Positions 491-43,900 of a DNA stretch of 64,000 nt are shown in pieces. The stretch is taken from NCBI GenBank assembly GCA_965153355.1, contig OZ231126.1:16616001-16680000 (forward strand). The letters are read 5' to 3'. A program made the position numbers and the translations under genes. This DNA is from Flaccisagitta enflata. Lineage: Eukaryota. The notes beneath the pieces were generated by a model that did not search any database, was not told the origin of the DNA, and was given only the letters and a program-made list of their open reading frames with translations. The number at the start of each line of letters is the position of its first letter. The first letter of the stretch is position 1.

Positions 491-717
491 TACTTTTTCA
501 ACTGGGTTTTACCAACTGCATCACACTGCATTACGTAAGGCTTAATCAACAATGAAGAAACCCATTATACAATTGACATTCGACCATCATTTTCATTCAA
601 ATATCAACAACGCTCACACAATCAATACAGAGCTTTGTTAGAGCACCCTCCATAAAGTAAGCAAAGGTTAATATAATCAATTGTGGGTTCTATAGAGTGC
701 ACAAGAGAAAAACTTAC

Positions 718-1989
718 AATTTGTCGTGCCGTAGTATCGAAGGGCAAACCGCGCATGCGTACGATGACCTGATTTCCGTCACCGCGGTCCAAAAACGCCT
801 TCGTCTCCTCGTCCGTCCCTGTTGTCAGTTTCGACGAGGATGACAACGAGGACGACAACGAGGACGACGACGAGGACGAGGGAGATGATATGGATGGCGC
901 CAGAGAAGGAGGTGCGATCGCGGAAGGCGTCGACATTTTGATCAGAATTAAAGAGGGAAACGTCGCGGAAGATGGCGTTATTGTTGCCGCCGTTATTTTT
1001 TTCAAAGGGTTGGGGGAGGATAAAAATGAAGAGTTGGAAGAAGATCAAATAGGACAGGGTAAATAAAAGTATCAACGAAAGTTCGAGAAAGGGGGAGGAA
1101 GAAAGGAAAGTTGGAGGTTAAAAAAAAAAACCTGAAAAACTACTCAACTCCCGAGAGGCCGCACGAGATACGACACACAGCGCCTCTTTAACAGATGATC
1201 GTGATGAAGGTCCATTCAATTTACGTTTGCAAGTGAACGCGAATGACGATCGTGAGACCGACGAGCAAACTTTTTGGCAAACTTTCGGCAGTCGATTTTG
1301 AAAAAAAATAAAGACGAGGGAAATTTGTCAAGTTCCGTGTAAAATTTCTAGAATCGAGAAAGAGTTTGCCTGAAGCGTTGCTCGTCCTTGAAGAGTCCCC
1401 CTAAAATTTAACGTCTCAATTATCCACTCTCGCTCTTTCTCTCTCCTTTTCGTTCAAAAGGATTCAGTTTCAGAATTTCACCGACGGCGACTGTCAACCT
1501 CGTTGGTCTCTAGTCGACCTCTTCCCAGTTTCGTCGCCAATTAAACTCACGTGAACTTTCGCTATCTCTCCGTTTCTGTCTCCTTCTCTGTCTCTTTCTC
1601 TCTCTTTCTCTCGCTCGCTCTCTCACTCGCGCTCGTAACTTGGTTATTCAGCCTTCCTATTTGTAGAAAAGAGGAAGAAACTAAAAACAACATTGTTAAA
1701 TAGGTTATGGAAACAAGAGAACCTTATAAAAGAAACACAACAAAAACGAAGATATTTTACGCGGACGAGGTAATCCAGTTATTACGAGGTGACACGGGTT
1801 GTCGGCTGTTGTCAGATGAAGAAAATGAGGAGCAATTGGCAATCCATCCAATATAAAGGAAAGCCACTTAACGTTTCTCTTTTGTATTTGATAACGAAAC
1901 CTCGTAAATAACGTTATATCATACAAGGATTGAGGTCAATCGATGTTGATTTCACGTTCTTTTGCTCTCATAGCTTAAATGCATAAAAG

Positions 1990-2076
<87 letters not shown>

Positions 2077-2506
2077 CAGAGATACATTCTGTTTCAGAGA
2101 TATAGATACATCGTTTTACAGCTGAATGATGCTGCGTCTAATCATATAAAGAGATGGTTATTTACTATAAAGTCTTTTCTTTTCTCTTGCTGATGTTATT
2201 TTGCTTTCATGTTTTGATTAACGTGCGTTTATGTTTTATAAGGCTTTGTGCGTCCATTCTACATTAAAGAGAGGCATTGGTTTTGTATTTTTCAAAAGGA
2301 CATGACAACTTGTTTTGCACTTAACAGCCTTTTCAAAAGAGAAAAATATATATTTGGAAAAAAATATATATATCTAAAGAAGAGCGTGAAAGAGGCGTTA
2401 CTTGCAAGAAGCAAACGACCGGAAATCTGCTAGGTTGTGGCCATCCGACTGAAAAAAGCCAAGGCGACAGCGTGACTGAGTGAGCAACTGACACCCCCTA
2501 TTCTCT

Positions 2507-2567
<61 letters not shown>

Positions 2568-2997
2568 CAGAGATACATTCTGTTTCAGAGATATAGATAC
2601 ATCGTTTTACAGCTGAATGATGCTGCGTCTAATCATATAAAGAGATGGTTATTTACTATAAAGTCTTTTCTTTTCTCTTGCTGATGTTATTTTGCTTTCA
2701 TGTTTTGATTAACGTGCGTTTATGTTTTATAAGGCTTTGTGCGTCCATTCTACATTAAAGAGAGGCATTGGTTTTGTATTTTTCAAAAGGACATGACAAC
2801 TTGTTTTGCACTTAACAGCCTTTTCAAAAGAGAAAAATATATATTTGGAAAAAAATATATATATCTAAAGAAGAGCGTGAAAGAGGCGTTACTTGCAAGA
2901 AGCAAACGACCGGAAATCTGCTAGGTTGTGGCCATCCGACTGAAAAAAGCCAAGGCGACAGCGTGACTGAGTGAGCAACTGACACCCCCTATTCTCT

Positions 2998-3075
<78 letters not shown>

Positions 3076-3344
3076 TCTCTCCTTTTGGCTTTCTACAAGC
3101 TTAATCGACAGAATCGACCTCCGAAAATGAGTCTTAATCAAATTAGTGAAATACTGAGAGAGAGAGAGGGAGAGCAAGCAAAGGAGGAAAGAGTTTTGAA
3201 CTTCTTATAATGTCATTATATCAATCGTCGATCATTTGAGTGACGGACGCGTTTACTTCGTTGAATGAGGTTATAGGGGTAGTTAAAAAATGAGGATGGA
3301 TTTATGCGCATTCTGTATGAAGGGACAGGGAACAAACAAGAAAG

Positions 3345-3383
<39 letters not shown>

Positions 3384-5858
3384 AGAGAGAGTTAGAGAGA
3401 GTTAGAGAGAGTGAGAGAGAGTGAGAGAGAGACAGACAGACAGACAGAGATAAGACAGAGATAAAGAACGTCTCATCTTTGCCCTTTTGTTCACTTTTTC
3501 CATCGGCCAGTTCAATAAATATATCAAATTGCTTGTAGCGCTCTCATGGCGGCGCCTGATGTTCTTTTCCTCTCTCGAAATAAACAACGTATACGACAAT
3601 AACTAGTAAAGGAAATGCTGCAACGATCTAAACCACAACAAAGATAATGGTCCAACTTCAACTAGGCCAACAAGGAAGACAACGACAACAACGGTCGCAA
3701 AGAGAACATCGACAGAGACAAAGATACTGCTTATTATAAGGTAGAGAACGTTCGACCATGACATAAGCAGTTACATTTGCTCGTTCTTCGATATCCAATA
3801 ATCAATTATGGCTTGGTATCGGAGGATAGTATCTGAGTTGCACGCGTCAGCTCATATCGCTGTTTGGCTTCTTGATTCCGATGCAATTACAAAAGACGAT
3901 ATCTCTTATGCTATTGAAGTAAAAGACTCAATCAACGTTTGTTCAAGCGTGCGCTGATGAGATGAGAAATGTTCATCGTGGGCGTCCATGACCGTTAAAT
4001 ATACAGTGCGATCGGAGCGACTCTACAACCCGCTTTGTCCGTCGGTCGGTTGGTCGGTCGGTCGGTTGGTCGGTCGGTCGGTCACACTTTACTTTTTTTA
4101 TCAATTCTATTTCTTTAGGTCATTTTTAGTCATTCTAAGTCATTCTAAGTCATTCTAAGTCATTCTAAGTCATTTTAAGTCATCTTAAGTCATTCTAAGT
4201 CATTATTGTCATTTTAGTCAATATAGTCCTTTTCATCATTTTAAGTTATTTTAAGTCATTTCAAGTTATTCTAAGTAATTTCAAGTGATTTTAAGGCATT
4301 ATAAGTCTTTCCAAGTCATTTTTAGTCATTATTGTCATTTTAGTCAATATAATCCTTTCCATCATTTTAAGTCATTTTAAGTCATTTTATGTCATTTTAA
4401 GTCATTACAAGTCATTATAAGTCATTATACATCATTTTAAGTCATTTTAAGTCATTTTAGATCATTTTTAGTCATTCTAAGTCATTCTCAGTCATTTTAG
4501 TCAATATAGTCATTTCACTTTTTATTTACATAATTATAGGTATTTGTAGGTCATTATAGGCCATTATGCAATTATAGGTAATCATAGGTCATTATAGGTA
4601 ATCATAGGCCATTGTAGGTAATTATAGGTCATTATGTAATTATAGGTAATTATAGGTCATTATAGGTAATTATAGATTTTTATGCAATTACAGTGGGAAC
4701 CCGATTTAACGTCCTTGAAGGGACCAGGGTATTTTGGACGTTAAATCTGAGTGTTGTTAAATCGAATTCTATTATTTCTATTATTTTTTCTTTTTACTAA
4801 ATATATTCTGGGCCTACGCTTTTCACAAACAAATAAGAAAAAAAAAGGAAAAAAAATGATTTAGGGGGATTGTAAAATCAAACAATGCAATGGATGATAG
4901 GTAACAATGCAATTTTAGCAATTGTATTACTGTAGCTATATCAAACATTATCACATAGATAATGGCAATTCAATATAACAGTCCAAATTTTGGAGAGACA
5001 GTTTTGGCAATGACAGAAGTCACACTGTATCCTAATAGGCATGTGGAAAAATTGCATGGAATGGATTTAAGAAAAAAAACATTCAGTGATTCGTATGAAA
5101 AAAATTTGTAATGATAGATTGATGGTGCAAACATGATTGCTTCAGTAACAAGGCTGGATACACGGCCACCAGTTGCGGACGGGTGGGCAGGGGCGGAAAT
5201 GCGCGTTTTCCCACCCTTTCGACTCGATCATTACGGACCAACGGATGGACGGACGGACGGACGGACGGACCGACAGATGGACCGACGGATGGACCAACGG
5301 ACGGACCAACTGACGAACGGACAAAGCCTCGTGTCCTCGTGTCCAAAACTAAAAATGGACGAGAGATGTAGAAAGTCATCTTGACGCGCAGAGGTTGAAA
5401 TCGAGGGTGCATCAGGTTCAGATGATTCATCATCTGACTCGTGAAAAAAGTCGTGATTCTGTTCCTCATTCTCTGCATTCAACTCATTTCGCAATGACAA
5501 AACGTTTCTGTTTGTCCAGCAGCGAGGTTACCATCAACGTTTAGATAATTGTTTGTGAAAAAAATGGCAAGAGGAATGTCAGCATCAGGGTCCTCGGTTT
5601 CAGAGTCCGGGCGAGGCGCCACGATTGGATCTGATGCTGCCAAGTCTCCCCAACACTTTCGAAAGCATTTGGTGATTGTGTCTGGAAGGACTTGGTTCCA
5701 TGCGGCGGCGGGATTTTGAGACCACTAGCTGGTGTAGATGAAATTTTCGGCATTCTTGTTCTTGAAAAAGTCGCGTATATTAGTGATGAAACAGGTTAAA
5801 ACGATAAAATTTTTTTTTTCTTCTATCGTAAACAATTGTGTTGGCTCTCTCTCTCATT

Positions 5859-16532: not shown

Positions 16533-16542
16533 NNNNNNNNNN
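16533..16542. other. Assembly gap (10 N)
   Basis: N run; truncates Gypsy pol inside RNase H; sequence left of the gap is not pol-like. Confidence 0.99.
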
Positions 16543-18960
16543 CCGGCGCTGCGTTGACGTCAGCTTTTTCGATCCATAGCTGATGACTTTCTCCTTGCCG
16601 TCGACTTTCTGCGTGAGCACGTAGCCAATGGCAGATAGGGACGCGTCAGACTTGACGATGAATGGCTTGGAGAAATCAGGGTAGTTCATCACCTGATCGG
16701 ACGTCAGAATGCGCTTTAGAGTCTCGAAAGCTATTTGATGTTCGTCGTTCCAGACCCATTCCGCATCATCGTGCGTTAAGTCCGTTAAGGGCTGCGCGAT
16801 TTTGGAGTAGTCTTTGACGAATTGGCGATAGTAACCCGTTAAGCCAAGAAATGTCTTCAGCTTCTTGGAGTTGGTTGGCGGGTTCCAGGCTCTGATTTTG
16901 TCAATATTTGCAGGGTCTGGTGACATCCCGTCTTTCGACAGCAAATGCCCCAGGCAGACAACAGAGTCCTGTGCAATACTGCACTTCGCCGGATTAAGCT
17001 TGAGTCCAGCACGCTCAAGAGCTGTGAGGACTTGGTCGAGATAGAAGATGTGGTCTTCCATTGTGTTGGACGCGACGAGGATGTCGTCGAGATAACTAAG
17101 AACATGCTGCGGCGGAAGGCCTCGCAGCACGAGTTGCATGAGAGCGCAGAGGGTGCTTGGCGAATTTTTGGCACCCATTGGGGCAACCAAATATTCCAAG
17201 TGCATCGATTCCGTGGAAAATGCAAAGTACTTGCGATCCTCGGGATGCACCGGAATTTGCCAGAATCCTTTCGTCAAGTCGAGAGACGTAAAGAATTCTG
17301 GCTTGTCAAGCTTTTGCAAGGAGTCCTCGATCCGCGGGAGAGGGTACACTACCTTGTTGCACTGCTCGTTGATTTTGCGGAAGTCGGTTAAGAAGCGCCA
17401 GCCACCAAGTTTCTTTTTCGCCAGAAGGATGGGCGCCGAGAAGGGGCTGGTGCTGTGAGCGACCAAGCCATCGGCGATCATTTCGTAGGCTTGGTTATCG
17501 ATGACTTCGCGCATTTCAGGTCTTGTTCGGTAAGGAGGTACGTTGATTGGAGTCATGTCTCTATCCTTGAGATTGGCGCGGTAATGGATCAAGTGAGTTT
17601 TTCCATAGTCGCGGTCATGGCGAGAGAATGCTTTCGCATGATCAATCTCCAGAAATTGTTTGAGACGAGCTTTGTAGGGGAGAGCTCTTTTAGAAAGCTT
17701 TGTCCAATCCAATTTGAGCCTTTTTGCCCCAGGCGGGATACTCATATCCGGCGACGATGGGAGGTCAGGCTGCTGATTGGAGGGGGGAGCTGGAGGAGGA
17801 GCTGGAGGAGGATCGGGAGGAGGAGGATCTGTTGGAGGGGGGGTATCTTGAGGAGAGCAAGACGCAGCGGGACGCTTTGCCTGTGCTGAGGGGGGAGGGG
17901 GGTCACACACGATCTCCTCCAAGTCTTCGTCGTCATCGTCGTCAGCATTGGCGTTGAAATCGACGGCTTCACTATCAGCGCTGGGCGGGGCTTTAGCTTC
18001 TTCTGAAGGATCGGCTCCATAATGACAGAACATTTCGGTTCTGACTACGCGCGATGTCAAGTCGTCCTCGGTGTAGAACTTGGCGTAGCCGAGCACTCTG
18101 CCACGTTCCATTTTGATTGGATATTTATGAGCGTTGATGACTTCTGTTGGGAAGAGTCCATCTTTCACTATGCTGACGCATCGATTCGCCCACAATTCGC
18201 TGGATGCATTGTTGAATGGCTGGGTTTCGACAATGTTGGATATGCATTTTATGTCGTTGAGCATCGCTTCGACCTTGCACACCGTTTTGCTGTTTGCGGG
18301 CACCACGAAGTCTTCAAGGACCCTGTAGTAACATCCGCTGATTTCGGACGTGTCCTTGATGAGGGGGGTTGAATCGCCGTACCTTGGGAACTCTACAGTT
18401 CCTTTGTCAGGATCGAGAAAGGCACCACAGCTTGAGAACCAATCCCAGCCCAAGAAGATGTCTTGGACCAGTCCTCGAACCACACGAAAGTTTGTTGAAT
18501 GGAACCGTCCATTAATACGAAACGCAACATTCACGATCCCGAGGGTCATGACTTTGGATCCGTTGATGGCGGTGCCACGGGTGGTGAGGGGCCTGTAGGG
18601 ACGAGTTTGCAAGTGTGGAGATCGCAGGAAGAAATCTTCGGACATGGCGCTTTTCGTGCAGCCAGTGTCGCCAATGACGCGTTGTTGAATTCTACGCTTA
18701 TTCACCTTATTCACACGAATATGTACATAGAACTCGGCTTTATACCGAGGCTTCGGATCAGACGGGGGACCGCGGGAAGGTGGAGGTTTAGGAGGAGGAG
18801 ACGGAGAGGTATCGGGCGAGGAGTTGGGATTTTTGCGGGTTTTGCGGTTTTTGCGGGTTTTCGCGCGGGAAGGACGGCTATCTACAGGGCTATTTACATT
18901 CGGGGCCTCATTTTCAATTCCGACATCAACGGGCCCCGGGGCTGAGTCGGGTTCTAGTTT
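16543..18960 (-). CDS. pol: Gypsy Pol (protease, RT, N-terminal RNase H), predicted to be expressed by -1 frameshift; truncated by gap
   Basis: Frame open from the slippery site through IGDTGC (protease), PPYR...SPFSAPILL...WRFLTDFRKIN...YPLPRIED...LDLTKGFWQI...PMGAKNSP...YLDDILV (RT) and PFIVKSDAS (RNase H). Confidence 0.93.
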
Positions 18961-18963
18961 CCC
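18901..18963 (-). promoter_or_regulatory. -1 programmed ribosomal frameshift signal (G GGA AAC + H-type pseudoknot)
   Basis: Heptamer at 18963-18957 directly before the gag stop; 6-nt spacer; stem1 CCGACTCAGC/GTTGA(T)GTCGG; loop CGGGGCC can pair with downstream GGCCCCG; pol is in the -1 frame. Confidence 0.85.
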
Positions 18964-20237
18964 CGACCATAGCCCACGGCACCCTGAGACTCCTCTTCGT
19001 TGGAGTCCTCAGAGTCCTCGTCTGCGGTTTCAATGGCCCGGTATTGGTCGTTCCGATCGGGACGATCGTTCCGACCACGGTTGCCACTGTCGCGGGTATT
19101 GCGGCGGTCGTCGCGAGGCTGGCTACGCTGATCGTTGCGGTCATCGCCGCGTTGGTTCCCATTGTCGCGGCGGTCGTCGTTGCGACGGCCAGGTTGGTTG
19201 TTGCTGCGACGGTCATCATTGCGGCGGTCATCATTGTTGCGGCGCTCACCTCTGTTGTTGCTGTTGGAGCGCGAGTTGTTAGAGCCACGGGACCAGCTGC
19301 GGTTGTTGCGAGAGCCACCCTGGTTTTGGCGACCTTGGTTGTAGCCACTGTTGTTGTTGCGTCCACAATCACCCGACGGGTAGTTGGAGCGAGAATTACT
19401 TTGGTACCCACCACTTTGGCTCCCTTGGCGTTGAGCTCTTTCAAGTGCTTCAATGCGGTCCACCAAGCGGCGGTTGGAAACTGCCAGGTTCTCCAACTGG
19501 GTGGTGATTCCAGCCATCGCAGTTTCGAGGCTGGTAGCGCGATCCGGATGCAGACTGGCGCTGGCAAAGGCGACTCCTTGTGCTGGATCACCGTCGGTCG
19601 CTTCGCCATCGTCGTCGGCGGTGGATAGCTGGTAGCGGAGTGCGACCTCCTTTGCCATTTCCAGCGTACGATTGTTGGCCGGGCAACCCATGTCGATGAT
19701 TCGACGCATCGGCTTTTTGAAGGCGTTGCGGAAGCGGAAGAAGTACTCCCGCGTTTTGAACTCATCCGGCATCTCTTTGTCGTACCGGTTGACGGCTTGG
19801 ACAACACGAGCGGCCAGATTGTGGAACGACTCCTTGCCGTCCCACTTGATGGTGGTGTACTTAGCCTGCCACTTGTAGCGTTCTTGGGGATCAATGAAGA
19901 GCCCAATGAGTTCTTCCTTAAGATCGGGCCAGACCGTGCTCGTCGCTTGGAGGTAGGTCACGTAGGCTGAGGAATGCAGTTTCAGAGGTAGCCACTCCAA
20001 GAAGAGGCTGCGGAGAGTTGGAGTGTCACGCACGTTGGTGGCCAACTTAACTGCCTTTTCAAAAAGTTCCACCCATTGTTCGAAGTCATCTTGACTGGCG
20101 TTGAAATCCCGTACATTGATGCTTGATGCACCTCTTTCCAATCGTGACGGGAAGGCAGGGGCGGCTGCGGCGGCGGCCCTAAGGGGGTCGTTGGGATCCA
20201 TTGCATCATTAGCGCCGTTAGCACCTTGACCTAGCAT
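18954..20237 (-). CDS. gag: Gypsy Gag, 427 aa
   Basis: ATG in AAAATG context; capsid-like DFNASQDDFEQWVELFEKAV...WPDLKEELIGLF...ESFHNLAARV; basic RNDDRR-repeat C-terminus without a CCHC knuckle; directly upstream of pol. Confidence 0.85.
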   Translation of the reverse strand: MLGQGANGANDAMDPNDPLRAAAAAAPAFPSRLERGASSINVRDFNASQDDFEQWVELFEKAVKLATNVRDTPTLRSLFLEWLPLKLHSSAYVTYLQATSTVWPDLKEELIGLFIDPQERYKWQAKYTTIKWDGKESFHNLAARVVQAVNRYDKEMPDEFKTREYFFRFRNAFKKPMRRIIDMGCPANNRTLEMAKEVALRYQLSTADDDGEATDGDPAQGVAFASASLHPDRATSLETAMAGITTQLENLAVSNRRLVDRIEALERAQRQGSQSGGYQSNSRSNYPSGDCGRNNNSGYNQGRQNQGGSRNNRSWSRGSNNSRSNSNNRGERRNNDDRRNDDRRSNNQPGRRNDDRRDNGNQRGDDRNDQRSQPRDDRRNTRDSGNRGRNDRPDRNDQYRAIETADEDSEDSNEEESQGAVGYGRGN

Positions 20238-20388
20238 TTTGCTGTGTTGGATGTGCGAAAATTACAAAAGATTTCACCGAGGATATCACACAAACCGTTC
20301 GAATGAAAGGGGATCCAGACTGAGCTTGGGCCGTCTCAGTTACTGAATAATGGGGGGGGAAAAGGTTTGACAAAAATACTCGGCGGAT

Positions 20389-20700
20389 TTAAGCGAGGGA
20401 GAAGAGGCTACGCAAGCCACGTAGCGCGCTGTTGTCGGATTCCACAACGTAGTCACAGTAGTTAAGCAAATTCGAATTGGCTCGAACGGCGTATCTGAGA
20501 GCTCGCACTTCCAATTCAGTAGTAGACCACTGTTGACGCTGTTGCTGGGTTAGAGTTTTAGAACCAAACGAAACAATGCGTTCCTCTCCTTCGATTCTGG
20601 CGGTCAACACAAAGCTGAAGGCGGTGCGGGTGGTGTGAATTTTGACAATTACTGGGAAGGCACTGGGCATGGCCCTTGGGTTGATGTTTTGGCGTGACAT
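20389..20700 (-). CDS. Stand-alone RNase H-like ORF (103 aa from ATG), probably catalytically inactive, in the Gypsy leader
   Basis: PVIVKIHTTRTAFSFVLTARIEGEERIVSFGSKTLTQQQRQ aligns without gaps to Pol PFIVKSDASLSAIGYVLTQKVDGKEKVISYGSKKLTSTQRR (18/41 identical by hand count), then continues WSTTELE...VVESDNSAL. Confidence 0.75.
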   Translation of the reverse strand: MSRQNINPRAMPSAFPVIVKIHTTRTAFSFVLTARIEGEERIVSFGSKTLTQQQRQQWSTTELEVRALRYAVRANSNLLNYCDYVVESDNSALRGLRSLFSLA

Positions 20701-20852
20701 ATTGATGACGAAAGAGTCCGATTTAGATTTCACTATTCGATGTTACGAAACCAATTACACAAAAAGGCGGAAGGCTGTCGGGATAAAGACACACGCGGAA
20801 AGGCACAATGGTGATGCGTGGTTACAATGGCAAAGATTACTTACGACGTAGT

Positions 20853-20981
20853 TCACAGCCAGTTTTCCATCGCCATCTTCTTGGTTTCTTTGGACTTCTT
20901 CTTTTCGCCTTTTTCGTATGCAGCTTTGACGGCTTCTTTAAACGCTTTGCGCCATTCTTCGAAGTCGTCTTTTCCGTCCAT
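20853..20981 (-). CDS. 42-aa mini-Gag ORF (copy of capsid N-terminal helices) in the Gypsy leader
   Basis: Hand translation: MDGKDDFEEWRKAFKEAVKAAYEKGEKKKSKETKKMAMENWL*. DDFEEWRKAFKEAVKAA matches Gag DDFEQWVELFEKAVKLA (10/17); start context ACAATGG. Below the ORF-track length cutoff. Confidence 0.65.
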   Translation of the reverse strand: MDGKDDFEEWRKAFKEAVKAAYEKGEKKKSKETKKMAMENWL

Positions 20982-21793
20982 TGTTAATAAGCTGCCTTAC
21001 CTCTAGATTGCACTTGTGGAGGTATCGTGAATAGACGGAATTGTCGTGATAATTAGAAAAAGTGGGGTTTATGCGTCATTGAATAAGGGGGGGATCGTCA
21101 TAAAATGTCCGTAAGAACGGGTCGAATGAGAAGCTAAATTCTGTTAGAGAAAAACGTGGCTTTAAATGATGATACGGTATGCCAGTCTCATCGCCAAAAG
21201 AGAAAGAGGAAGAACAGATGGGTAGCAATTCCAAAGAGGGGGCTTACAGACCGTGGGCTGATCCGACTACTTCGGCCTGTCAGACACTGTCAACCTAGCA
21301 ACAATGCCCTTTCTCTTCGTCGGGAGAGCACTAAACAGCAGAAAGCAAGTCCAGACTGTGGAAAGCTGGGAAAGGGGGAGAGCCTAGGATCGAGGGGGGG
21401 GCAGTCCGTGAATGCAGAGGCAGGCTTACACACTCGAACTGGACATCTGCTGCCACGAACAATGAAGTTCCCAGATGTGCGCGACACAACCGAAGGGGGA
21501 GGAGGGGAAACTGGGATCAGAGGAATATGCGGGGGGAGTGGGACCACAACCACGTCACTTCCAACACAGTTTCCACACCAGCCTTCGGGACGAAAACTGG
21601 AGTGAAAGGAAGACTGTCCAAACAGCTGGGCAGAGGGGACCAAACGGGGGGTTGGGACAGCTGTTGAACACCCAAGTAGTGATCCTGCTGACAGCACCCT
21701 CAGAACCAATCTAAAGTTGAGACCGGCGGGGCAGTACCTACAAAGAGGGGTAGGGACTTACAGGATGGGGGGCCACTCAAGGGGTAAGAGAGG

Positions 21794-21803
21794 CGATGCA
21801 CCA
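21794..21803 (-). promoter_or_regulatory. Primer-binding site, probably tRNA-Gly(GCC)
   Basis: TGGTGCATCG one base after the LTR end; complementary to the ...CGATGCACCA 3' end I recall for arthropod tRNA-Gly(GCC). Confidence 0.6.
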
Positions 21804-21804
21804 A

Positions 21805-22176
21805 TATAAGTGGCTATTCTGGGAGGATTAGCAACTTACGTGAATGCATGAGTCCTTGGCATTCTGTATCATCGGCGGGCTTATCGTCATTAGTTCTATG
21901 CCCATGCTAGAGTCAATTCAGTATAAGTGTCTGTCATCTAGAGAGGCAAATAGAACAGGCTATGATTATATGCACGGACGATAGTTAGTATAGTTAGGAT
22001 GGATACTTAGTAGGATCATGCAGTTATTAGATTATCCGTATATCATTAAAGCCACTAATGCTAGGCTGAATCTATAACTGAAGATAGCAAAAGGGAATGA
22101 AGGCATGCAAAGTAATATGCGTGGCATGCTAAATAATATCAAGCGTGAATGATTAGAAGCATGAAAAGCCATTACA
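21805..22176 (-). repeat. 5' LTR (372 bp)
   Basis: Starts TGTAATGGC and ends GCCACTTATA (imperfect terminal inverted repeat), followed by the PBS; no second LTR is available for confirmation. Confidence 0.7.
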
Positions 22177-22227
22177 GGGAAGCAGCTAATAGCGGGATTA
22201 AGCATGCACAAAATGTACTCCTACACC

Positions 22228-22940
22228 ATCTTTCTGCCTTTCCATCTTTCTGCCTTTCCATCTTTCTGCCTTTCCATCTTTCTGCCTTTCTATAATTCTG
22301 CCTTTCTATCTTTCTGCCTTTCCATCTTTCTGCCTTTCCATCTTTCTGCCTTTCCATCTTTCTGCCTTTCTATCTTTCTGCCTTTCTATCTTTCTGCCTT
22401 TCTATCTTTCTGCCTTTCTATCTTTCTGTCTTTCTATCTTTCTGTCTTTCTATCTTTCTGTCTTTCTATCTTTCTGTCTTTCTATCTTTCTATCTGTCTT
22501 TCTATCTTTCTATCTGTCTTTCTATCTCTGCCTTTCTATCTTTCTGCCTTTCTATCTTTCTATCTTTCTGCCTTTCTATCTTTCTGCCTTTCTATCTTTC
22601 TGCCTTTCTATCTTTCTGCCTTTCTATCTTTCTGTCTTTCTTACTTTGTCCTTTAGTTTTTCAACTTTCATGCCATTCCATTTTTCTTCTGCCTTTTTAT
22701 TTTTCTGCCTTTTCCGCACATTTCTGCATCCCACATCCTTCTGCCTTTGTTTTTCTACCTTAATCTCTATTTCTATCTGCCTTTCTATCTATCTGCCTTT
22801 CTATCTGCCTTTCTATCTTTCTGCCTTTCTATCTTTCTGCCTTTCTATCTTTCTGCCTTTCTATCTTTCTGCCTTTTGTTTCTGTGATCAGCCTTTCTAT
22901 CGTTCTGCCTTTCTATCTTTCTGCCTATCTTCCTTTGTTC
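22228..22940. repeat. Pyrimidine-rich 16-bp tandem repeat (TTTCYATCTTTCTGCC)n
   Basis: Visible periodicity; produces spurious LSFCLSIFLPFY ORFs. Confidence 0.9.
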
Positions 22941-23062
22941 TATAATTTTTCATGGCATTCCATTTTTCTGCCTTTCCCGCATCTTTCTGCTTCTCCATCT
23001 GACTATCTCTTCATCGGAGGCTGTAGTTGTTTGGTCGTTAATTTGCCTCGATTCTTGGCTAG

Positions 23063-24820: not shown

Positions 24821-27800
24821 ATGCCTTCTTTGACGGGACCCTCGAAGAAGGAGAACGAACTGAAGGCGCATTTGGATGGAAATAAACTCGATTTGTCGCT
24901 TATGCAACACGATGCCATCACTCCCGCGCTCGTTCGGCAGATCGCCGCTCTTCCGAAAGGTGAATACGATTAGGAAGGTGGAAACTGCGTCGATTCACGC
25001 TCTCTGAATCTTTTCTTCAGGCCTGGCCCAGCCCTACCTGCTTTTCGCCTTCCATGGGAATTACACAATTTTTTCATTTTCTTGTCAATTTTCCATCCTA
25101 TTCAATGGGTATCCTTTATTTTTTCATTATTTGCATTTGTATTTGTCAATTTCCCATTATATTCAATGGGAATTCCACATTTTTTTTTCACTTTCTCGTC
25201 AATTTTCCATATTTATCCAATGGGGATTACAATTTTTTTCCATTTTTTTGTCAATTTTCCATGCTGTTCAATGGAAATTGTTGAAATCCTCGTTTTTTGT
25301 CGATTTTCCATGAAATTGAGCTTGATTACGATGAAAACGAGGAGAATGAAAGGAAGGGAAGGGAAGAAGAAAAACAGGACTCGGGAGGCTCCGACCATGA
25401 AAAGGAGGAGGAAACCGGGGAAGAGGAGGAAACTGGGGAAGAGGAGGAGGAGGAGGAACCGGCGGAACCGGCGACCGACGGGAAAAAGAAAAAGAAGAAC
25501 AGGAGGCGAAACCAGGAGAGACAAAGGAAGAAAGAAAAAGAGGGGAAACAGAAAGAGAAAAGGGTCGATGAGATGGAAATGGGGGCCGAAGACCCAACGA
25601 GACCGGCTAATCGGTCTCCTGGAAGGCATGAGTCCCTCCAGTTTCTGGCGAGACACCGAGCGGAGGTCCAGAGGAGAAAGGGATGGACGGAGGAAGAAAT
25701 TGAGGAGGATCGAAAGAAAAGGGAAGAGGAGGAAAGGATAGAGGACGATAGGAGAGAGAAAGAGGCGAAAAAGGAGAGAAGAAAAGATAGAAAGAAAAAG
25801 GAGGAAGAAGAAAAAATGGCAGAACAAGAAAGAAGAGAAAGAGAAGCATATGAGATGCTTGCAGAAAAGAAAAAGGAAATATGGGAAAAGAGAACCCAGA
25901 GCAGACAGGAAGTGGCGAATCTTGAACGCGAATTGGAACAATGCAAAAAAAATGCGTGGGAGACTAGGCACCGCGGCAATGAGATGAGACGGCCTTGGTC
26001 CTCCTCCCCAAAACCGTCGTCATGGGAACAACGCGAGAGAGGTAACAACAACAACAACAACCACGACAGTGTCCATCGTGGCGGCACCCATCATGGCGGC
26101 AAAACCAACCATGGCGGCAACACCTACAGTGGCGGCAACACCTACAGTGGCGGCAACACCTACAGTGGCGGCAACACCTTTCGTGGCGGCAACACCTTTC
26201 GTGGCGGCAACACCTTTCGTGGCGGCAACACCTTTCGTGGTGGCAACACCTACCGCGGTGGCAACACCTACCGCGGCGGCGGCGGTCCTCTCCGTGGCGG
26301 CACCGCGCCGCATCACCGTTCATCACTCTCGATCGAAGAAACTCAGAGCCAGAGACACCGGTCCCGTTCGCCAACTAGAGACTTTCATGGGCCACTCAAT
26401 CAACAACAAAACTCCGGAAGAGGCCGCTCCTCACGCCAGGAACGACACCAAAACGAGCGGCAACAACCTTTCCAACAACGCGATGATCGGCATCAGCAGC
26501 AGCAGCAACAGCAACAGCAAGAAGCGACGGGGACATCGATGGCGCAAGAAATGCGCCAATTCATGGCGGAAATACGGGACGCCTTGGGAACTAGGCGTCA
26601 AGAAGGACAAACAAGGAAGGAGTGAATTTAATTTCGGAGGATGTAACTGTGAATGGGACTGTCCTTTCGTTTGGGGCGGAAATACGAACTGATGTGATGG
26701 TTTAGTTCTTGGGAAGTAGATGTAGCAATTGTTTGTCTCCAAGTCAACAGGCGATTCGCCTTACTTTATTGGAGTACTTGAATTTGAATTTGAATTTATT
26801 CAATGGTGCAATGGTGCTCTCACATCCAATTGGGAAAAACTTCCCCCTGTGTTCTACAGGGCATCTACCCCTTCGGGGCCGCTGCCCTATTAACCATCAC
26901 CCACATAGACGAGCATACAAAGCAGGGCAACGGGTATCGCTGACCTCATATTGCTCTAGGGCGACTGGTTACTTTTCGGCGTTTTTGAGCTTTTTGGGCA
27001 GCGGCCCCAAAGGGCCGATGTCCTGTAGGACACAGGGCACACTGTCTCGAGCGGTTCTTATATAGCGAAAAAAAGGCAGTATTTTTCTCATTGAATACAA
27101 CCATTGAACAGTGTCAATACAAGTGTTCTTGAAAATTGACAAAATGCAAACTTCCCATTGAATGATATGAAAAATTAACGGAAAAGCGAAAAATGTATGT
27201 TTCTTATTGAATAACATGGAAAATTGATGAAAACTGAAAATAATGTTGAATTCCTATTGAATAATATGGCAAATTGACAAGAAATGAAAAACAAGGCCAA
27301 GAGATGTCCAATAGATGCGTCCTCTTTAGAAGTACGATATTATCATATAAATTACCAAGATATTACGATATAAAGATTCAGAGATAAAGAGAGAAAATAT
27401 TAACTGATTCCTCTCTCCCCTCCCCACCCCCCCCCCCCACAGAAATAAGAGATATAAGAGACATATTGGAGAAATAAGAGACATATAGGAGACAAAAGAG
27501 ACAAAAGAGATGAAAGATACAAAAGAAATATAAGAGACATGAAGAGAAATATAGAGAAAACCTTAAAAATCGCGTTTTAAAATTTTCGCGTTCCGGACAT
27601 TCAGACAGACAGACAGACATTCAGACAGACCAAGGGACACACCCTCTTATAGAGATGCGAGGACGCATTTAAAAAACAAAGTTGCCATTGAATATTATGG
27701 ATAACTGCTCAGGACGTATGGAAATTTACCCCGTGTCCTACAGGACATCGGCCCTTTGGGGCCGCTACTCTGCTCTTACTCCACTTCTTTTGCTAATCTC

Positions 27801-30800
27801 TCCAAGCAGGGCATCGGGATGACTTGTTGAACCTACTGCTCCCGCCAAAATGCTCAAGTGACCTTCTCCAGCACTGCTCCTGCCCACCCGCACGCGACTT
27901 GGGTAGCCGTTTATCTGGCCTTTCCCTTCCATCCTATCAACCTATCTATCTTTCTTCCTCTTCCTACCTCCTTCCTCTTCCTTCCTCCCTTCCTCCCTTT
28001 CACTCCCTCCACCCTTACCTTACCAGAAACTTGCTTTCTTCCCCCCCCCCCTTTTGTTTCACTCGCCTCCTCTTTTCAGTTTTCACCCTCTTCCATCTTT
28101 CGTTTAACTCTTTACTTCACTTTATTTCCTTTTTAAGTGCGTCCTCGCACTTCTAAAAGAGGTCATGTCCGTCGGTCGGTCGGTTGGTTGGTTGGTTGGT
28201 TGGTCGGTCGGTCGGTCAGACAAACGTTTGAAATGCGCAAAATGGCTGATTCTGACGTATTTCTTCATTCCTATCACCTTTCATGCCTTACCACATTCAT
28301 ATTCATTCATTCATTCGTTCATATATTCATTCATTCATCAAAAACGTTCATTCACAAAATCTTACACTCAATAAAGGCCTTCAAAAGGCCTTAAAACTGT
28401 CTGAAATTCTTAAGAACTATCATCTAGGATGTCTTGGCTACCTAAAACAACATCAGACTAAATCATTTGAATGCAAAATTTAGATAAAAGTAGGTAAACG
28501 CCCTAATTCTTTGAGGCGCAAAAATGTCGCTAGAGAGTAGAAAAACGGAATGGAACCATTTTGGATCTTCCCTTGCAAAGCTCCGAAAACGGTTAAAAAT
28601 GTTTATATGAACCAAGGAAAGTATGATTCTGAATGCTGACGACACGAGCTATCGATTGGTGTAAGTTTTGAAAGCCAACTATGAGAACAAGATATTGTTT
28701 TTCCTCTTTTCTTGCTTTCCTGACTTGTTACGGCGATATGCGAATATGAACTTTGATGCATATGGGCTCAATAGATGCAGTTTTGTTTTTTCTTTCAAAT
28801 GAGACCTTTCCGAAACTTGAGATCAGCCCCACGCGGCCTCACGAATGATATTAAGAAGACTCTATCTGCTCGATTTTCCGTAGTTTTCTTTCGCGATGTT
28901 TGGTTAACCGCATAAGCTACTTCACTTCACATGAATGAAATAATCAACTGTGCGGTTCCGTCTGTAGACTCGCGATTCCGTCAGTAGACTCGCGATTCCG
29001 TCTGTAGACTCGCGATTCCATCTGTAGACTCGCAATTCCGTCTGTAGACTCGCGATTCCATCTGTAGACTCGCGATTCCGTCTGTAGACTCGCAATTCCG
29101 TCTGTAGACTCGCAATTCCGTCTGTAGACTCGCGATTCCGTCTGTAGACTCGGGATTCCGTCTGTAGACTCGCGATTCCGTCTGTAGACTCGCGATTCCA
29201 TCTGTAGACTCGCGATTCCGTCTGTAGACTCGCGATTCCATCTGTAGACTCGCGATTCCGTCTGTAGACTCGCGATTCCATCTGTAGACTTGCCATTCTG
29301 TCTGTAGACCTGCCATTCTGTCTGTAGACTCGCGAGTCCATCTGTAGACTCGCGATTCCGTCTGTAGACTCGCAATTCCGTCTGTAGACTTGCGATTCTG
29401 TCTGTAGACTCGCAATTCCGTCTGTAGACTCGCGATTCCGTCTGTAGATTCGTCATTCCGTCTGAAGGCTCACCATTCCGTCTGTAGACTCGCGATTCCG
29501 TCTGTAGACTCACGATTCCATCTGTACACTCGCGATTCTGTCTGTAGACTCGCGATTCCATCTGTAGACTCGCGATTCCGTCTGTAGACTTGCGATTCCA
29601 TCTGTAGACTCGCGATTACGTATGTAGACTCGCGATTACGTCTGTAGACTCTTGATTACATCTGTAGACTCTTGATTCCGTCTGTAGACTCGCGATTCCG
29701 TCTGTAGACTCGCGATTCCATCTGTAGACTCGCCATTCCGTCTGTAGACTCGCCATTCCGTCTGTAGACTTGCCATTCCGTCTGTAGACTCGCCATTCTG
29801 TCTGTAGACTCGCGAGTCCATCTGTAGACTCGCGAGTCCATCTGTAGACTCGCGATTCCGTCTGTAGATTCGTCATTCCGTCTGAAGGCTCGCCATTCCG
29901 TCTGTAGACTCGCCATTCTGTCTGTAGATTCGTCATTCCATCTGTAGACTCGCCATTACGTCTGTAGATTTGTCTCTCCGTCTGTAGACTCGCCACTCCG
30001 TCTGTAGACTCGCAATTCCGTCTGTAGACTCGCAATTCCGTCTGTAGACTCGCGATTCTGTCTGTAGACTCGCGATTCTGTCTGTAGACTCGCGTTCCGT
30101 CTGTAGACTCGTGTTCCGTCTGTAGACTTGCGATTCCGTCTGTAGACTCGCGATTCGGTGCATAGATTCGGGATTCCGTGCATAGAATCGCGATTCCATC
30201 TGTAGACTCGCGATTCCGTCTGTAGACTCGCGATTCTGTCTGTAGACTCGCGGTTTTTTGTTGTTTTCATAAGTACATACAACATGCGTGGTAGGTTCTT
30301 GGCACTTTTTAAGCATTTTTGACCATTTTTATAAGTATTTCAAGGGACCAACTGCGTAAAACAAAGGTGCCAAAAATCTTGCTAATTTCTCCCCTTAAAA
30401 ATTCATGAAATCAACATGGTCAATTTTGTTTTTTTGGGCCAAAAATGTCTGAAACCTTCAAAAACCCCACCCCAGAGACACTTTCGGGTGAAAAAGAGCC
30501 ATGAATGGTAACTGACATGAATTTGGAAGAATTAGGCCTTATACCTAATAAAAGTCATTTTTTTGGCAAAAATCAAGTATTTTTTAGCATATTTGGCATT
30601 TTTTCTGTTCACATAGCTTCCAAAACTTTAGAAAATACCTGAAACGTGTAGGGATACCTAATATACAACTGCTTTTACCATTTTAAGCTAGTTTTGGTTA
30701 ATATTTTAAAGATAAGAGCAAAAAAATAGCAAAAAAACAGCAAATTAAGCTGTTTTTTAATATTTTTTCTGCCTTAAAATTGTTCTAGCTATTTTAAAAA

Positions 30801-40900: not shown

Positions 40901-43900
40901 GAGGACTATAACATAGCCTTGATCGTGTAGTGAGTCGTGTGTTCGTCGTCGTCGTGTCAACCCTTAAAAACTTGAGAACCACAACTCAGATGTTGATGAA
41001 ACTTGGTCAGTGTTATTTTTAGGGCATTACTAACCTGTGTACCAACTTTCAACAACATTCATAAATATTTAATACCCTTTGCCTATTATTTTTGTAGTAA
41101 TATTAATTCCTGGACTTGTGCAATTTACATAGGGGAAGGGTAGTAAAGGTTCACCAATGTTGTTCAAACTTGTTGTGAAGGTTTATTGCATCAATTAAAG
41201 CTCCCCTGCAAGATTTCAGATAATTCTGAGTATTGGTTTAGAAGATATAAGGGTATTTTGCTAGTAATATTAATTCCTAGACTTGTGCAATTTACATAGG
41301 GGAATGGTAGTAAAGGTTCACCAATGTTGTTCAAACTTGTTGTGAAGGTTCATTGCATCAATTAAAGCTCCCCTGCAAGATTTCAGTAAATTCTGAGTAT
41401 TGGTTAAGAAAATATAAGGGTATTTATGATGTATCTAGTAACATTATTTTTTGGACTTAAGAATTTTTTTGTCGAAAAAAAATTTTTTTTTTTTTGAAAA
41501 AAATTTTTGTCCGCGACGGAATATCATTCCGACGCGGACTATAATTCAAGGCGGGTGGGTGTCGTCGTCGTCGTCGTCGTCGTTGTCGTCCCGGATTTTA
41601 AAAAATGGATAACTTTTTTATGCTTTGACCGATTTGGTTCATATTTGGTGGGAAGTTGTGCTAGGGTAAGGCGCTTTACATCCTATCCGATTTTTGTGAT
41701 CCGACCAACCCAACCGGCCCAACCAGCCTACCGGCCTAAAAGTGAAAAACGTGCATAACTTTGGCATTTTTCAACCGATTTGGCTGAAATTTGGTATGGA
41801 GTCTCTAAATGGAAGGCCTCAACATATGTGTATGATTTATATGCATTTGAGCATGCTAACCGGCCAAACTGACCTACCACCCAACCAGCCAACCGGCCTA
41901 AAATGAAAAACTTGCGTAACTTTGTCATTTTTCAACTGATTTGCTGAAACTTGGTATGGAGTCTCTAAATGGAAGGACTCAGCATATGCAAACTATTTAT
42001 CCTGTTAAACCAGCCTACCACCCAACCAGCCTACTGGCCTAAAAAAAACGTGCATAACTTTGGCATTTTTCAACTGATTTGGCTGAAATTTGGTATGGAG
42101 TCTCTAAATGGAAGGCCTCAACATATGTATATGATTTATATGCATTTGAGCATGTAACTGGCAAAACTGACCTACCACCCAACCAGCCAACCGGCCTTAA
42201 AGTGAAAACTTAACCTGTCATTTTTCAACTGATTTGGTTGAAACTTGGTATGGAGTCTCTAAATGGAAGGACTCAGCATATGCAAACTATTTATCCTGTT
42301 AAACCAGCCTACCACCCAACCAGCCTACCGGCCTAAAATGAAAACGTGCATAACTTTGGCGTTTTTCAACCGATTTGTTGAAATTTGGTATGGAGTCTCT
42401 AAATGGAAGGACTCAACAAATGTATGTTATATGCATTTGAGCATGCTAACCGCCAAACCGACCTACCACCCAACCAGCCAACCGGCCTTAAAGTGAAAAA
42501 CTTGCGTAACTTTGTCATTTTTCAACTAATTTGGTTGAAACTTGGTATGGGGTCTCTAAATGGAAGAACTCAACATATGCGCACTATTTATCCTGTCAAA
42601 CCAGCCTACCACCCAACCAGCCTACCAACCAAAAAGTGATAAATGTGCATATCTTTGAAGAGCGACCAATTTGGTTGAAATTTAGTATGGAGTCTCTAAA
42701 TGGAAGGACTCAACACATGTATATGATTTATGTTTGAGCATGCTAACTGGCCAAACCAACCTACCACCCAACCAGCTTACCGGTTTAAAAGTAAAAACTT
42801 ACATAAATTTGACATTTTTCAACCAAATTGGTTGAAACATGGTATGGAGTCTCTAAATGGAAGAACTCAACATACGCACACTATTTATCTAAACCAGCCT
42901 ACCACCCAACCACCCTACTAGCCTAAAAGTGAAAAACGTGCATAACTTTGTCATTTTTCAACGGATTTGCATGAAACTTTGTATGGCGGCTCTAAATGTA
43001 AAGTCTTATAGTTTTGGCGAACTTATGTTAGCGATCTTTGGTCATAGCGATCTTACGGAATTGGTGATCTTTAACCTTCCGCGGGACCCAGATACTGTTC
43101 AGATTTTTTTTAAATTTTTATTTTTTTTTAAATTTTTTTTGAAAAAAAATTTTTTTTTTTAAAAAAATTTTTTTTTGAAAAATTTTTTCTTTTGAAATTT
43201 TTTTTTTTTTGAAAAATTTTTTTTTACTTTAAGGTATGCAATTGGTAGCCGGGTCAGACTGAGTAGCCGGGTCAGACTGAGTAGCCGGGTCAGACTGAGT
43301 AGCCGGGTCAGACTGAGTAGCCGGGTCAGACTGAGTATCCGGGTCAGACTGAGTATCCGGGTCAGACTGAGTAGCCGGGTCAGACTGAGTAGCCGGGTCA
43401 GACTGAGTAGCCGGGTCAGACTGAGTAGCCGGGTCAGACTGAGTAGCCGGGTCAGACTGAGTAGCCGGGTCAGACTGAGTAGCCGGGTCAGACTGAGTAG
43501 CCGGGTCAGACTGAGTAGCCGGGTCAGACTGAGTAGCCGGGTCAGACTGAGTAGAGTAGAGTAGACGATTATGCCCCTAGGCCAGCTTACGCCAGCATTG
43601 CGGGGATGTCGAGTCGAGTAGTATTAGCGATGATTGTTTGTTTTTTCGCTCTCGTCCTGTAGCGTTGACTGCTTATTCAGCATTTTCTTCACCGCCCGCC
43701 GCCTCCGGCGTGTTTTTCCTCCATTTGTCGTAGCTATTCTTAAAGCTGTTGATCGACGTCACCTTCTTCGTCCCGTCTGGCAGCGCATTCCACAATTTGG
43801 CCGCCCTTACTGTAAAAAAGTTCCGACGAACCTCCAGCCTGGCTCTTTCGACCTTTAATACATGCTCCTTCCTCACTTCCCCTTCTTCCGTTATGTTCAC

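Follow-up and report, generated by a model that had tools for sequence, protein, structure and literature searches.

A candidate accessory gene derived from the element's own RNase H domain, upstream of gag in a Ty3/Gypsy retrotransposon of Flaccisagitta enflata

We analysed a 64,000-nt stretch of the Flaccisagitta enflata assembly (contig OZ231126.1, positions 16,616,001 to 16,680,000 of the forward strand; hereafter the window, whose own numbering is used throughout) and found that its minus strand carries a Ty3/Gypsy long terminal repeat (LTR) retrotransposon with a 759-nt module directly upstream of gag. The module holds a pair of small open reading frames (ORFs), a short one resembling part of the element's Gag, here called mini-Gag, and a longer one resembling the RNase H domain of its Pol. 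The reading that we favour, with a probability of about 0.55, is that the RNase H-like ORF is a selected accessory gene of this Gypsy family, derived from the element itself and catalytically dead. An earlier note made from the DNA letters of the window had described two ATG-initiated ORFs on the strand of gag and upstream of it, each similar to a domain of the element's own polyprotein, and on all of these points our searches agree with it. What is new in this module is that the accessory ORF is both self-derived and enzymatically disabled; accessory ORFs upstream of gag are known already.

The RNase H-like ORF is matched by the Pfam family PF17917 (RT_RNaseH) with an E-value of 2.7e-10 (bit score 40.8, cut-off 24.8; profile positions 5-86 of 105 are covered). 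It shares 43.9% identity over 41 aa with residues 782-822 of the element's own Pol (tblastn E 2.5e-7), and 34.9% over 86 aa with the RNase H domain of a full-length relative. It does not follow reverse transcriptase (RT) in a Pol polyprotein, standing alone upstream of gag with an ATG and a stop codon of its own, and homology searches found no remnant of protease (PR) or RT between or beside the two small ORFs, just as the earlier note had claimed. In its conserved form the ORF probably begins at Met11 (ATG at 20670), giving a product of 93 aa. The first catalytic Asp is replaced by His, Glu and the second Asp are retained, and the ORF ends ahead of the part of the domain that bears the last catalytic Asp; a complete domain with the four carboxylates D-E-D-D is thus not present. 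These catalytic columns were assigned by alignment with Pol domains, together with general knowledge of the fold. Within the aligned part, all three catalytic residues are intact in the Pol pieces of relatives, and the RNase H domain of the window's Pol likewise has its first Asp (KSDASL).

A structural model of the RNase H-like ORF, computed with AlphaFold2 (AF2) from 12 family members, has a mean predicted local distance difference test score (pLDDT) of 80.3 and consists of beta1-beta3, helix A and beta4, followed by a helix of low confidence. Its best fold matches in the PDB are reverse transcriptases, namely those of cauliflower mosaic virus (CaMV), Moloney murine leukaemia virus (MoMLV), xenotropic murine leukaemia virus-related virus (XMRV), foamy virus and Ty3, with template modelling (TM) scores of 0.5-0.63 on the query. 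A complex prediction that paired residues 11-103 of the small ORF with residues 1-430 of a relative's RT-RNase H returned a score of 0.00, which has no bearing either way.

The ORF has many relatives of the same kind. A word-based search returned two clusters of RNase H-like ORFs. The first contains 16 variants at 90-100% identity, all of either 103 or 93 aa, with the 93-aa form that starts at Met11 (P0003) found on 41 contigs and the 103-aa form identical to the window's (P0005) on 4. The other cluster, a subfamily at 66-68% identity, has four members, all of them 121 aa long, with an unchanged C-terminal end and one in-frame codon gap. A phmmer search against 1.84 billion representative sequences gave 27 hits, of which the top four, and five of the top seven, were small proteins (78-104 aa) at 38-59% identity; a sixth small protein, P0041, ranked lower. 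The nearest long proteins in that list, about 40% identical, were Pol proteins of the host element's Gypsy lineage, consistent with the derivation from the element's own lineage that had been put forward earlier. The small proteins have a Met a few residues ahead of beta1, and the intact ones end soon after the second-Asp motif. The window's ORF, P0021, P0024 and P0027 all pass PF17917, with matches that run from profile position 5 or 6 to 86-88 of 105. Lengths are kept within the 90% clusters of small ORFs as well: all four members of one cluster have 104 aa, 5 of 7 and 7 of 7 members in two others have 92 aa, and among the 15 members listed (of 21) of an 86-aa cluster 13 have that length, one being found on 49 contigs. 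Over the stand-alone RNase H-like clade of metagenome proteins as a whole, intact forms measure 86-121 aa and identity falls to 35-41% with domain limits unchanged. On the matter of ORF conservation, which the earlier note had raised, the RNase H-like ORF therefore came through well, in that the ORF persists in diverged copies and in whole sister lineages, with unchanged domain limits and no indels other than in-frame ones.

We used a maximum-likelihood tree of 31 RNase H pieces over 92 columns to examine descent, omitting P0029 (DUF236 repeats), the unexamined P0026 and P0035, and the window's own Pol, whose RNase H domain is available over 45 residues only. All 13 small ORFs fall into one clade (support 100/100), and this clade groups with 10 host-lineage Pol pieces (96/99), apart from the Pol proteins of other Gypsy elements. 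Together, the clade and its grouping with host-lineage Pol point to a single old origin from the lineage's own RNase H, with deep divergence afterwards. The Glu and the second Asp are retained in 7 of 7 deep lineages, and of the 8 lineages in which the column of the first Asp is present, 7 carry His or Tyr there, the exception being P0067, which retains Asp. Per-site variability in the small clade is correlated with that in the Pol domains (Spearman 0.28, p 0.006, 92 columns). Thus, because a deep clade keeps its domain limits and residues and branches from the Pol of this Gypsy lineage, we conclude that the RNase H-like ORF is most likely a conserved, self-derived accessory gene.

Mini-Gag and the copies of the module

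The likeness between mini-Gag and Gag is short, and the alignments indicate that it is real and not a product of chance. Across Gag 49-66, 10 of 18 residues are identical (tblastn E 0.48 over the whole window), and the Smith-Waterman score of 58 lies above all of 2000 shuffles (27.5 +/- 4.2, maximum 48; z about 7). A profile of 22 mini-Gag variants matches the same segment with an E-value of 7.6e-7 for that single target, and a relative's mini-Gag aligns with Gag along 36 aa (E 0.002). In these 22 variants the start codon and the first 24 residues are nearly constant; the tail has four kinds of C-terminal end, reached through a frameshift or through a stop read as Trp followed by 4-5 codons, and one copy reads through to 80 aa. 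A subfamily at 72-77% identity comprises two members of 39 aa (one of them on 18 contigs), in which the start and the end motif are unchanged and a gap of 3 residues is in frame, and two other forms that extend to 67 and 122 aa. The protein is highly charged and, as judged by eye, has no hydrophobic stretch. With its constant head and varying tail, mini-Gag is less sure than the RNase H-like ORF as a conserved gene. A 390-aa bacterial IS3-type transposase (P0053) listed in the mini-Gag 90% cluster was dropped as a clustering error.

At the DNA level, mini-Gag and gag have a 20-nt motif in common (Table 1). Its score is 30, compared with 18.7 +/- 2.2 in shuffles, of which the top one in 300 also reached 30, and the flanks of the motif do not align between the two places. 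A long tandem duplication of the leader and the gag start was considered and rejected, the DNA-level match being merely 20 nt. Folding of the RNA around the motif showed no clear structure, with z values of -2.08 for the copy in mini-Gag and +0.63 for the one in gag. The motif may serve as a cis signal or as a hot spot for recombination.

The 759-nt module as a whole is most likely a regular, inherited part of a multi-copy Ty3/Gypsy family, and neither a nested relic nor an assembly error. The stretch from 16543 to 22150 is at least partly present in 17 of 24 listed public runs belonging to 10 studies (marine metagenomes and one coded organism), and it is covered over its whole length in all four public DNA runs that were compared, with depth in 30, 30, 30 and 25 of 30 bins. 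In run X3, 357 contigs fall across the stretch in four identity classes (90, 85, 87 and 95), and many diverged copies must therefore exist. Summed word depth is 894-1364 in the module bins, comparable to the 635-4729 in gag/pol, and reaches 3360-4856 above about 21592, where greater depth is as expected if the LTR lies there. One contig covers 19891-20707, from the gag start through the entire RNase H ORF, with 5 differences, and further contigs cover 20684-21018 and 20543-20902. Among the contig pieces listed (32 of 784, so that counts of pieces are minima), one variant shows 25 differences over 287 nt of the RNase H ORF and no gap, and the indels listed for these pieces lie in the spacer. 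The multiple copies, and the contigs of independent runs that bridge the module to gag, support the earlier reading that the ORFs belong to the element, and show that the module is not a one-off. Joints from 20093 to 20993 (run X2) and from 19877 to 20993 (X3) were taken as diverged relatives and not as spliced or deleted copies, because their sides measure just 23-25 nt with undetermined letters between them; no conclusion was drawn from them.

Origin, expression and rival explanations

We propose that the RNase H-like ORF, of about 93 aa from Met11, would be a protein-coding accessory gene under purifying selection, and that the module would have begun, long ago, as an internally deleted copy of the element in which the gag start was joined to the RNase H region. 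In the course of reverse transcription, recombination could later have put such a deleted copy in front of a complete gag-pol. Two proteins suggest an origin of this type for the module. In P0067 (122 aa), mini-Gag is fused in frame with an RNase H part that still has Asp at the first site, and the two pieces therefore travel together in a diverged lineage. In P0047 (JGI/IMG; 166 aa, on a contig of 1231 nt), the RT-connection/RNase H of a host-type Pol follows immediately on the N-terminal part of Gag, and the first and second catalytic Asp are replaced by Gly and Asn, respectively. P0047 is an independent, younger gag-RNase H deletion derivative, and such internal deletions therefore arise in the host lineage.

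With its first catalytic Asp replaced and the last absent, the encoded protein would be unable to cut, while the core fold, the Glu and the second Asp would be kept. The likeliest activity, on which our certainty is low, would be that the protein binds the element's RT/RNase H, or else RNA-DNA hybrids, in a non-catalytic way. Binding of this kind would tune or limit reverse transcription, much as the dead RNase H connection, or tether, does within retroviral RT. The dominant-negative or decoy role that the earlier note had suggested is neither favoured nor disfavoured by these results.

Another question is how the module would be translated. We infer that it would be expressed from the unspliced full-length RNA, on which ribosomes would translate the short mini-Gag ORF, resume scanning, and then start either at the RNase H ORF or, past 433 ATG-free nt, at gag. 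The ATG map was made from one copy, in which no ATG occurs in any frame from 20670 to 20237 (433 nt). Dinucleotide shuffles of this run contain 4.46 ATGs on average and none with a probability of 0.0027, and for both spacers to be ATG-free the probability is 0.015. Because the 433 nt before gag are ATG-free, ribosomes may scan through the module, and the layout as read from the DNA would suit scanning or reinitiation better than the predicted intron in which the earlier note had placed the two ORFs. A joint between the ends of that intron (20242/21001) was found in none of the DNA contig pieces listed from the four runs (again 32 of 784). Mini-Gag would be a second small protein or, alternatively, mainly a short upstream ORF (uORF) that sets the reinitiation balance. 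A more ambitious version of this scheme envisages a marine Gypsy clade with a two-gene module, in which a dead RNase-H-fold protein acts in trans as a regulator, for copy-number control or interference with rivals, and the Gag-head ORF, jointly with the ATG-free run, serves as an ATF4-like, possibly stress-tuned reinitiation switch between it and Gag-Pol; we regard this version as speculative and rather unlikely.

The significance of the accessory-gene reading, if true, is that the element duplicated and disabled a domain of its own enzyme and kept it as a separate small gene through deep divergence. Few accessory genes of LTR retrotransposons are known, and those that are known are either captured foreign domains (env, the plant mobile domain (PMD), fusogens) or products of an intact gag (Ty1 p22). 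If the protein binds RT or RNA-DNA hybrids, it would provide a natural and genetically simple handle on the regulation of Gypsy-type reverse transcription, and a second, independent case of self-encoded copy-number control. Its ATG-free run, in addition, recommends the leader as a candidate model of polycistronic translation in the retroelements of animals or protists.

A number of observations weigh against this reading. Protein collections list called ORFs only, and broken copies are invisible in them, so that intactness is over-counted. Three of nine deep lineages are damaged or partial, P0023 being without its N-terminal part and P0041 and P0067 having frameshifted tails, and the tail of mini-Gag varies through frameshift and stop loss. 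At least one X3 contig is without 20360-20943 (a joint of 20359 to 20944, at a depth of 57 against 894-2003 in the bins spanned); the RNase H ORF and most of mini-Gag are gone from it, and copies without the module therefore exist. The stem of the small clade is long (1.2 changes per site) and the clade is internally deep, so that its constraint must differ from that on Pol or be weaker. The constraint itself is deduced from protein sequences, and the expression and the binding partner of the module proteins are likewise putative. The diverged small ORFs P0021-P0027 are known as proteins alone, scans of metagenome and viral contigs having turned up no related locus with its DNA context; a position upstream of gag is certain for the window family. 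The label of leader rests on the position beside gag and on co-amplification, and the bounds of the LTR and the primer-binding site (PBS) are putative. Finally, the ATG-free run was noticed post hoc, and is the 7th longest on the minus strand of the window.

It could be argued that translation control accounts for the module by itself, with both ORFs acting as uORFs on the gag mRNA through which leaky scanning or reinitiation would throttle or gate the synthesis of Gag-Pol, and with peptides that have no role. The strong AUG on a 42-codon ORF, followed by ATG-free spacers and by the 433 ATG-free nt up to gag, is in line with this, as is a mini-Gag tail that varies freely behind a start and first 24 residues that are kept. 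A pure uORF, however, requires no specific peptide, yet at identities as low as 35-41% the RNase H ORF still has its fold-specific residues and unchanged domain limits, and its variability from site to site follows that of Pol. Moreover, ORFs as long as 93-121 codons disfavour efficient reinitiation, and the RNase H ORF is of this length. We consider an explanation by translation control alone unlikely. The points on over-counting and damage, in turn, are what would be seen if a recombinant ancestor had gained a deleted gag-RNase H remnant that has hitch-hiked neutrally since, and that seems intact because the family is young and the databases hold open frames. Called ORFs alone are visible, tails are frameshifted (P0041, P0067), there is a read-through form (P0020), and the module can be lost whole (the joint of 20359 to 20944); an ORF of at least 103 codons, furthermore, arises in 3% of shuffles of the 759-nt segment, so that the length by itself is weakly unusual. 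Yet six deep lineages at 37-68% identity keep the start region and end within the domain, with several members of constant length in each, where neutral drift over such divergence should break the frame, and the shared derived state of the first catalytic site and the single clade are incompatible with independent decay. On this evidence a neutral relic appears distinctly improbable.

Further down in probability, and in our judgement very unlikely, stands the idea that the module and gag do not belong to one element at all, the module having come from another unit (a non-autonomous deletion derivative, a host gene, or a plus-strand element with its end in the polypurine run at 21196-21215) and having been brought against gag by nesting or mis-assembly. 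It draws on the undefined bounds of the LTR and the PBS, on a run resembling a polypurine tract (PPT) with TG after it on the plus strand (21196-21221), and on the gap that cuts the window copy. Contigs from independent runs and studies nevertheless bridge gag and the ORFs with few differences and at similar depth, there is no plus-strand ORF with homology at that place, and the ORFs and gag lie on the same strand. We therefore return to a selected, self-derived accessory gene as the explanation that we prefer for the RNase H-like ORF.

The host element and its surroundings

The host element is a Ty3/Gypsy (Metaviridae) LTR retrotransposon, in which gag, protease-like, RT and RNase H domains follow one another in that order on one strand (Table 1). 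Its pol frame is matched by RVT_1 (E 1.9e-32) and RT_RNaseH_2 (E 1.9e-20), and the protease match lies under the Pfam cut-off (21.4 against 24.3 bits). Over 352 aa of the RT, Pol is 73.6% identical to P0034, a relative in which Integrase_H2C2 and rve come after RNase H. The gag product has no match in Pfam and no sequence match in the PDB; the nearest language-model clusters carry Retrotrans_gag, at a score of 0.92 and a low shared count, which we treat as a lead. A single-sequence AF2 model of Gag 1-254 was poor (pLDDT 46.8) and was set aside, and the long Pol relatives P0030 and P0037 begin at the protease, and are therefore uninformative on the Gag head in relatives. A gap of 10 N cuts the copy, the 3' half of which is missing from the assembly at this place, and the window therefore lacks the remainder of RNase H, the integrase and the 3' LTR. 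The whole 64-kb window holds no integrase match, no second copy of the element or of its upstream region, and no tRNA gene.

No terminal inverted repeat was found for the upstream repeated region, and an Rfam scan of 20000-23000 gave no matches. Inspection by eye of candidates for the LTR end or the PBS (21196, 21803 and about 21600) confirmed none of them. On the plus strand, a polypurine run (21196-21215) with TG directly after it, at 21196-21221, resembles a PPT-LTR junction in the orientation opposite to that of the element, and it may be the complement of a pyrimidine-rich 5' LTR end. A tandem array of 44 copies with a period of 16 (alternatively 8) at 22228-22930 adjoins the upstream repeated region and may lie inside or beside the LTR.

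Farther along the window, the minus strand carries a long array at 28922-30316 with a unit of about 20 codons, open in several frames and encoding peptide repeats like ESRVYRRNRESTDGIASLQT; either a minisatellite or a coding gene of repetitive make-up could account for it. On the plus strand, 25573-26625 holds an ORF of 350 aa, which may represent a host gene with domains of low complexity: one half is rich in Lys/Glu/Arg, and there are Gly-Gly-Asn-Thr-aromatic repeats and a run of poly-Gln. Two plus-strand arrays with an 18-nt period, at 43242-43537 and 48000-48115, have the word TGAGTAGC in common and surfaced as near-matches in a motif search.

Table 1. Positions, in window numbering, of the module, the host element and associated features
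Feature	Position	Strand	Remarks
Mini-Gag ORF	20853..20981	-	42 aa; residues 4-21 resemble Gag 49-66; strong start context AACAATGG; Lys-rich variable tail
Spacer 1	20701..20852	-	mini-Gag stop to RNase H ORF; ATG-free; small indels between copies (deletions at 20724, 20732)
RNase H-like small ORF	20389..20700	-	103 aa from ATG; stop-to-stop 20389-20742, 117 aa
Spacer 2	20238..20388	-	RNase H ORF stop to gag ATG; ATG-free; part of the 433-nt ATG-free run
gag	18954..20237	-	ATG at 20237; 427 aa; Arg/Asn/Asp-rich tail
pol frame	16543..19008	-	protease-like, RT and first 45 RNase H residues; ended by assembly gap
Run of 10 N (assembly gap)	16533..16542	.	interrupts element within RNase H domain; sequence past gap unrelated
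Upstream repeated region	21001..22150	-	leader and probable 5' LTR; co-amplified with element; word depth climbs from about 21592 upward; ends approximate
Candidate PBS	21182..21196	-	TGG-initial 15-mer, 23 nt past nearest CA; unconfirmed, no matching tRNA
20-nt motif, mini-Gag copy	20952..20971	-	18/20 identical to 20073-20092; contains 8-nt palindrome
20-nt motif, gag copy	20073..20092	-	codons for Gag 49-55

Comparison with known systems

Polycistronic translation by leaky scanning or delayed reinitiation is familiar from ORFs I-III of rice tungro bacilliform virus and from the uORF switch of ATF4/GCN4. The module resembles these systems in having a short first ORF, an AUG-poor stretch leading to the downstream ORF, and then a choice between the second and the main ORF, a likeness that is drawn here from the ATG map of one copy alone. 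No description of a mini-ORF upstream of gag that derives from the element's own RNase H or Gag came up in the literature searched, the scope of which did not extend to subscription journals and supplements.

The earlier note had not recognised the architecture from described Gypsy elements. This stands as far as the self-derived ORFs are concerned, and falls as regards their placement, since the MDG1 group of Drosophila Ty3/Gypsy elements (412, Mdg1, Stalker2, Blood) is known to have a pair of small ORFs upstream of gag, named sORF1 and sORF2 (bioRxiv 10.1101/2025.03.14.642691). According to the available part of that preprint, these sORFs lie on the full-length unspliced transcript, are conserved and translated, and have both been detected by mass spectrometry; sORF1 is helix-turn-helix-like and nuclear, and sORF2 resembles a fusion-associated small transmembrane (FAST) membrane fusogen, with a transmembrane helix and a polybasic patch (bioRxiv 10.1101/2025.03.14.642691). 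The module has the same position relative to gag, and the unspliced, translated sORFs of MDG1, as there described, show that such a layout can work. In content, however, the two differ. Here the ORFs copy the element's own RNase H and the N-terminal part of its Gag, whereas the MDG1 sORFs, on the same partial account, are not self-derived; the beta-sheet RNase H fold of the AF2 model and the charged mini-Gag are set apart from the MDG1 proteins as these are described; and the order of sizes is 42 aa and then 93-103 aa here, against about 110 and then about 70 aa in MDG1.

Additional ORFs ahead of gag, at a non-conventional place, are also a feature of the plant Tat/Ogre elements, in which, going by the sections of the two papers that we drew on, they encode captured PMD or transposase-28 domains (PMC4408406, PMC7264820). 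The likeness to our module is in the placement, and the difference is that the domains there are captured, whereas those here are copies of the element's own.

For Ty1 the relation is the reverse, in that the likeness concerns the source of the product. Ty1 p22 is a self-encoded restriction factor consisting of Gag's C-terminal half, as stated in the excerpts available (PMC4599808, PMC8458377), and like p22/p18 the mini-Gag product comes from the element's own structural gene and could act in trans on the parent protein. The closer parallel with p22 that the earlier note had drawn for mini-Gag does not hold, because mini-Gag corresponds to the N-terminal part of Gag and p22, in the portion of the source consulted, to its C-terminal half (PMC4599808). 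Mini-Gag is instead a separate, diverged ORF of 42 aa that copies 18-36 residues of the N-terminal part.

The nearest counterpart of the RNase H-like ORF itself is found within Pol. The tether, or connection, of retroviruses and the degenerate gRNH of plant Tat elements have, by the passages of the source that were available, an RNase H fold of Ty3/Gypsy origin, have lost their catalytic residues, and play a non-catalytic role (PMC4408406). The module likewise contains a disabled RNase H fold, and the PDB matches of its model include the RTs of MoMLV and foamy virus. The tether and gRNH lie inside Pol beside a newly acquired, active RNase H, so far as that description goes, whereas the ORF described here stands alone, is truncated at its C-terminal end, and is placed upstream of gag. 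Thus, if the accessory-gene reading is true, the element has made the same evolutionary move as that behind the retroviral connection/tether, but in trans.

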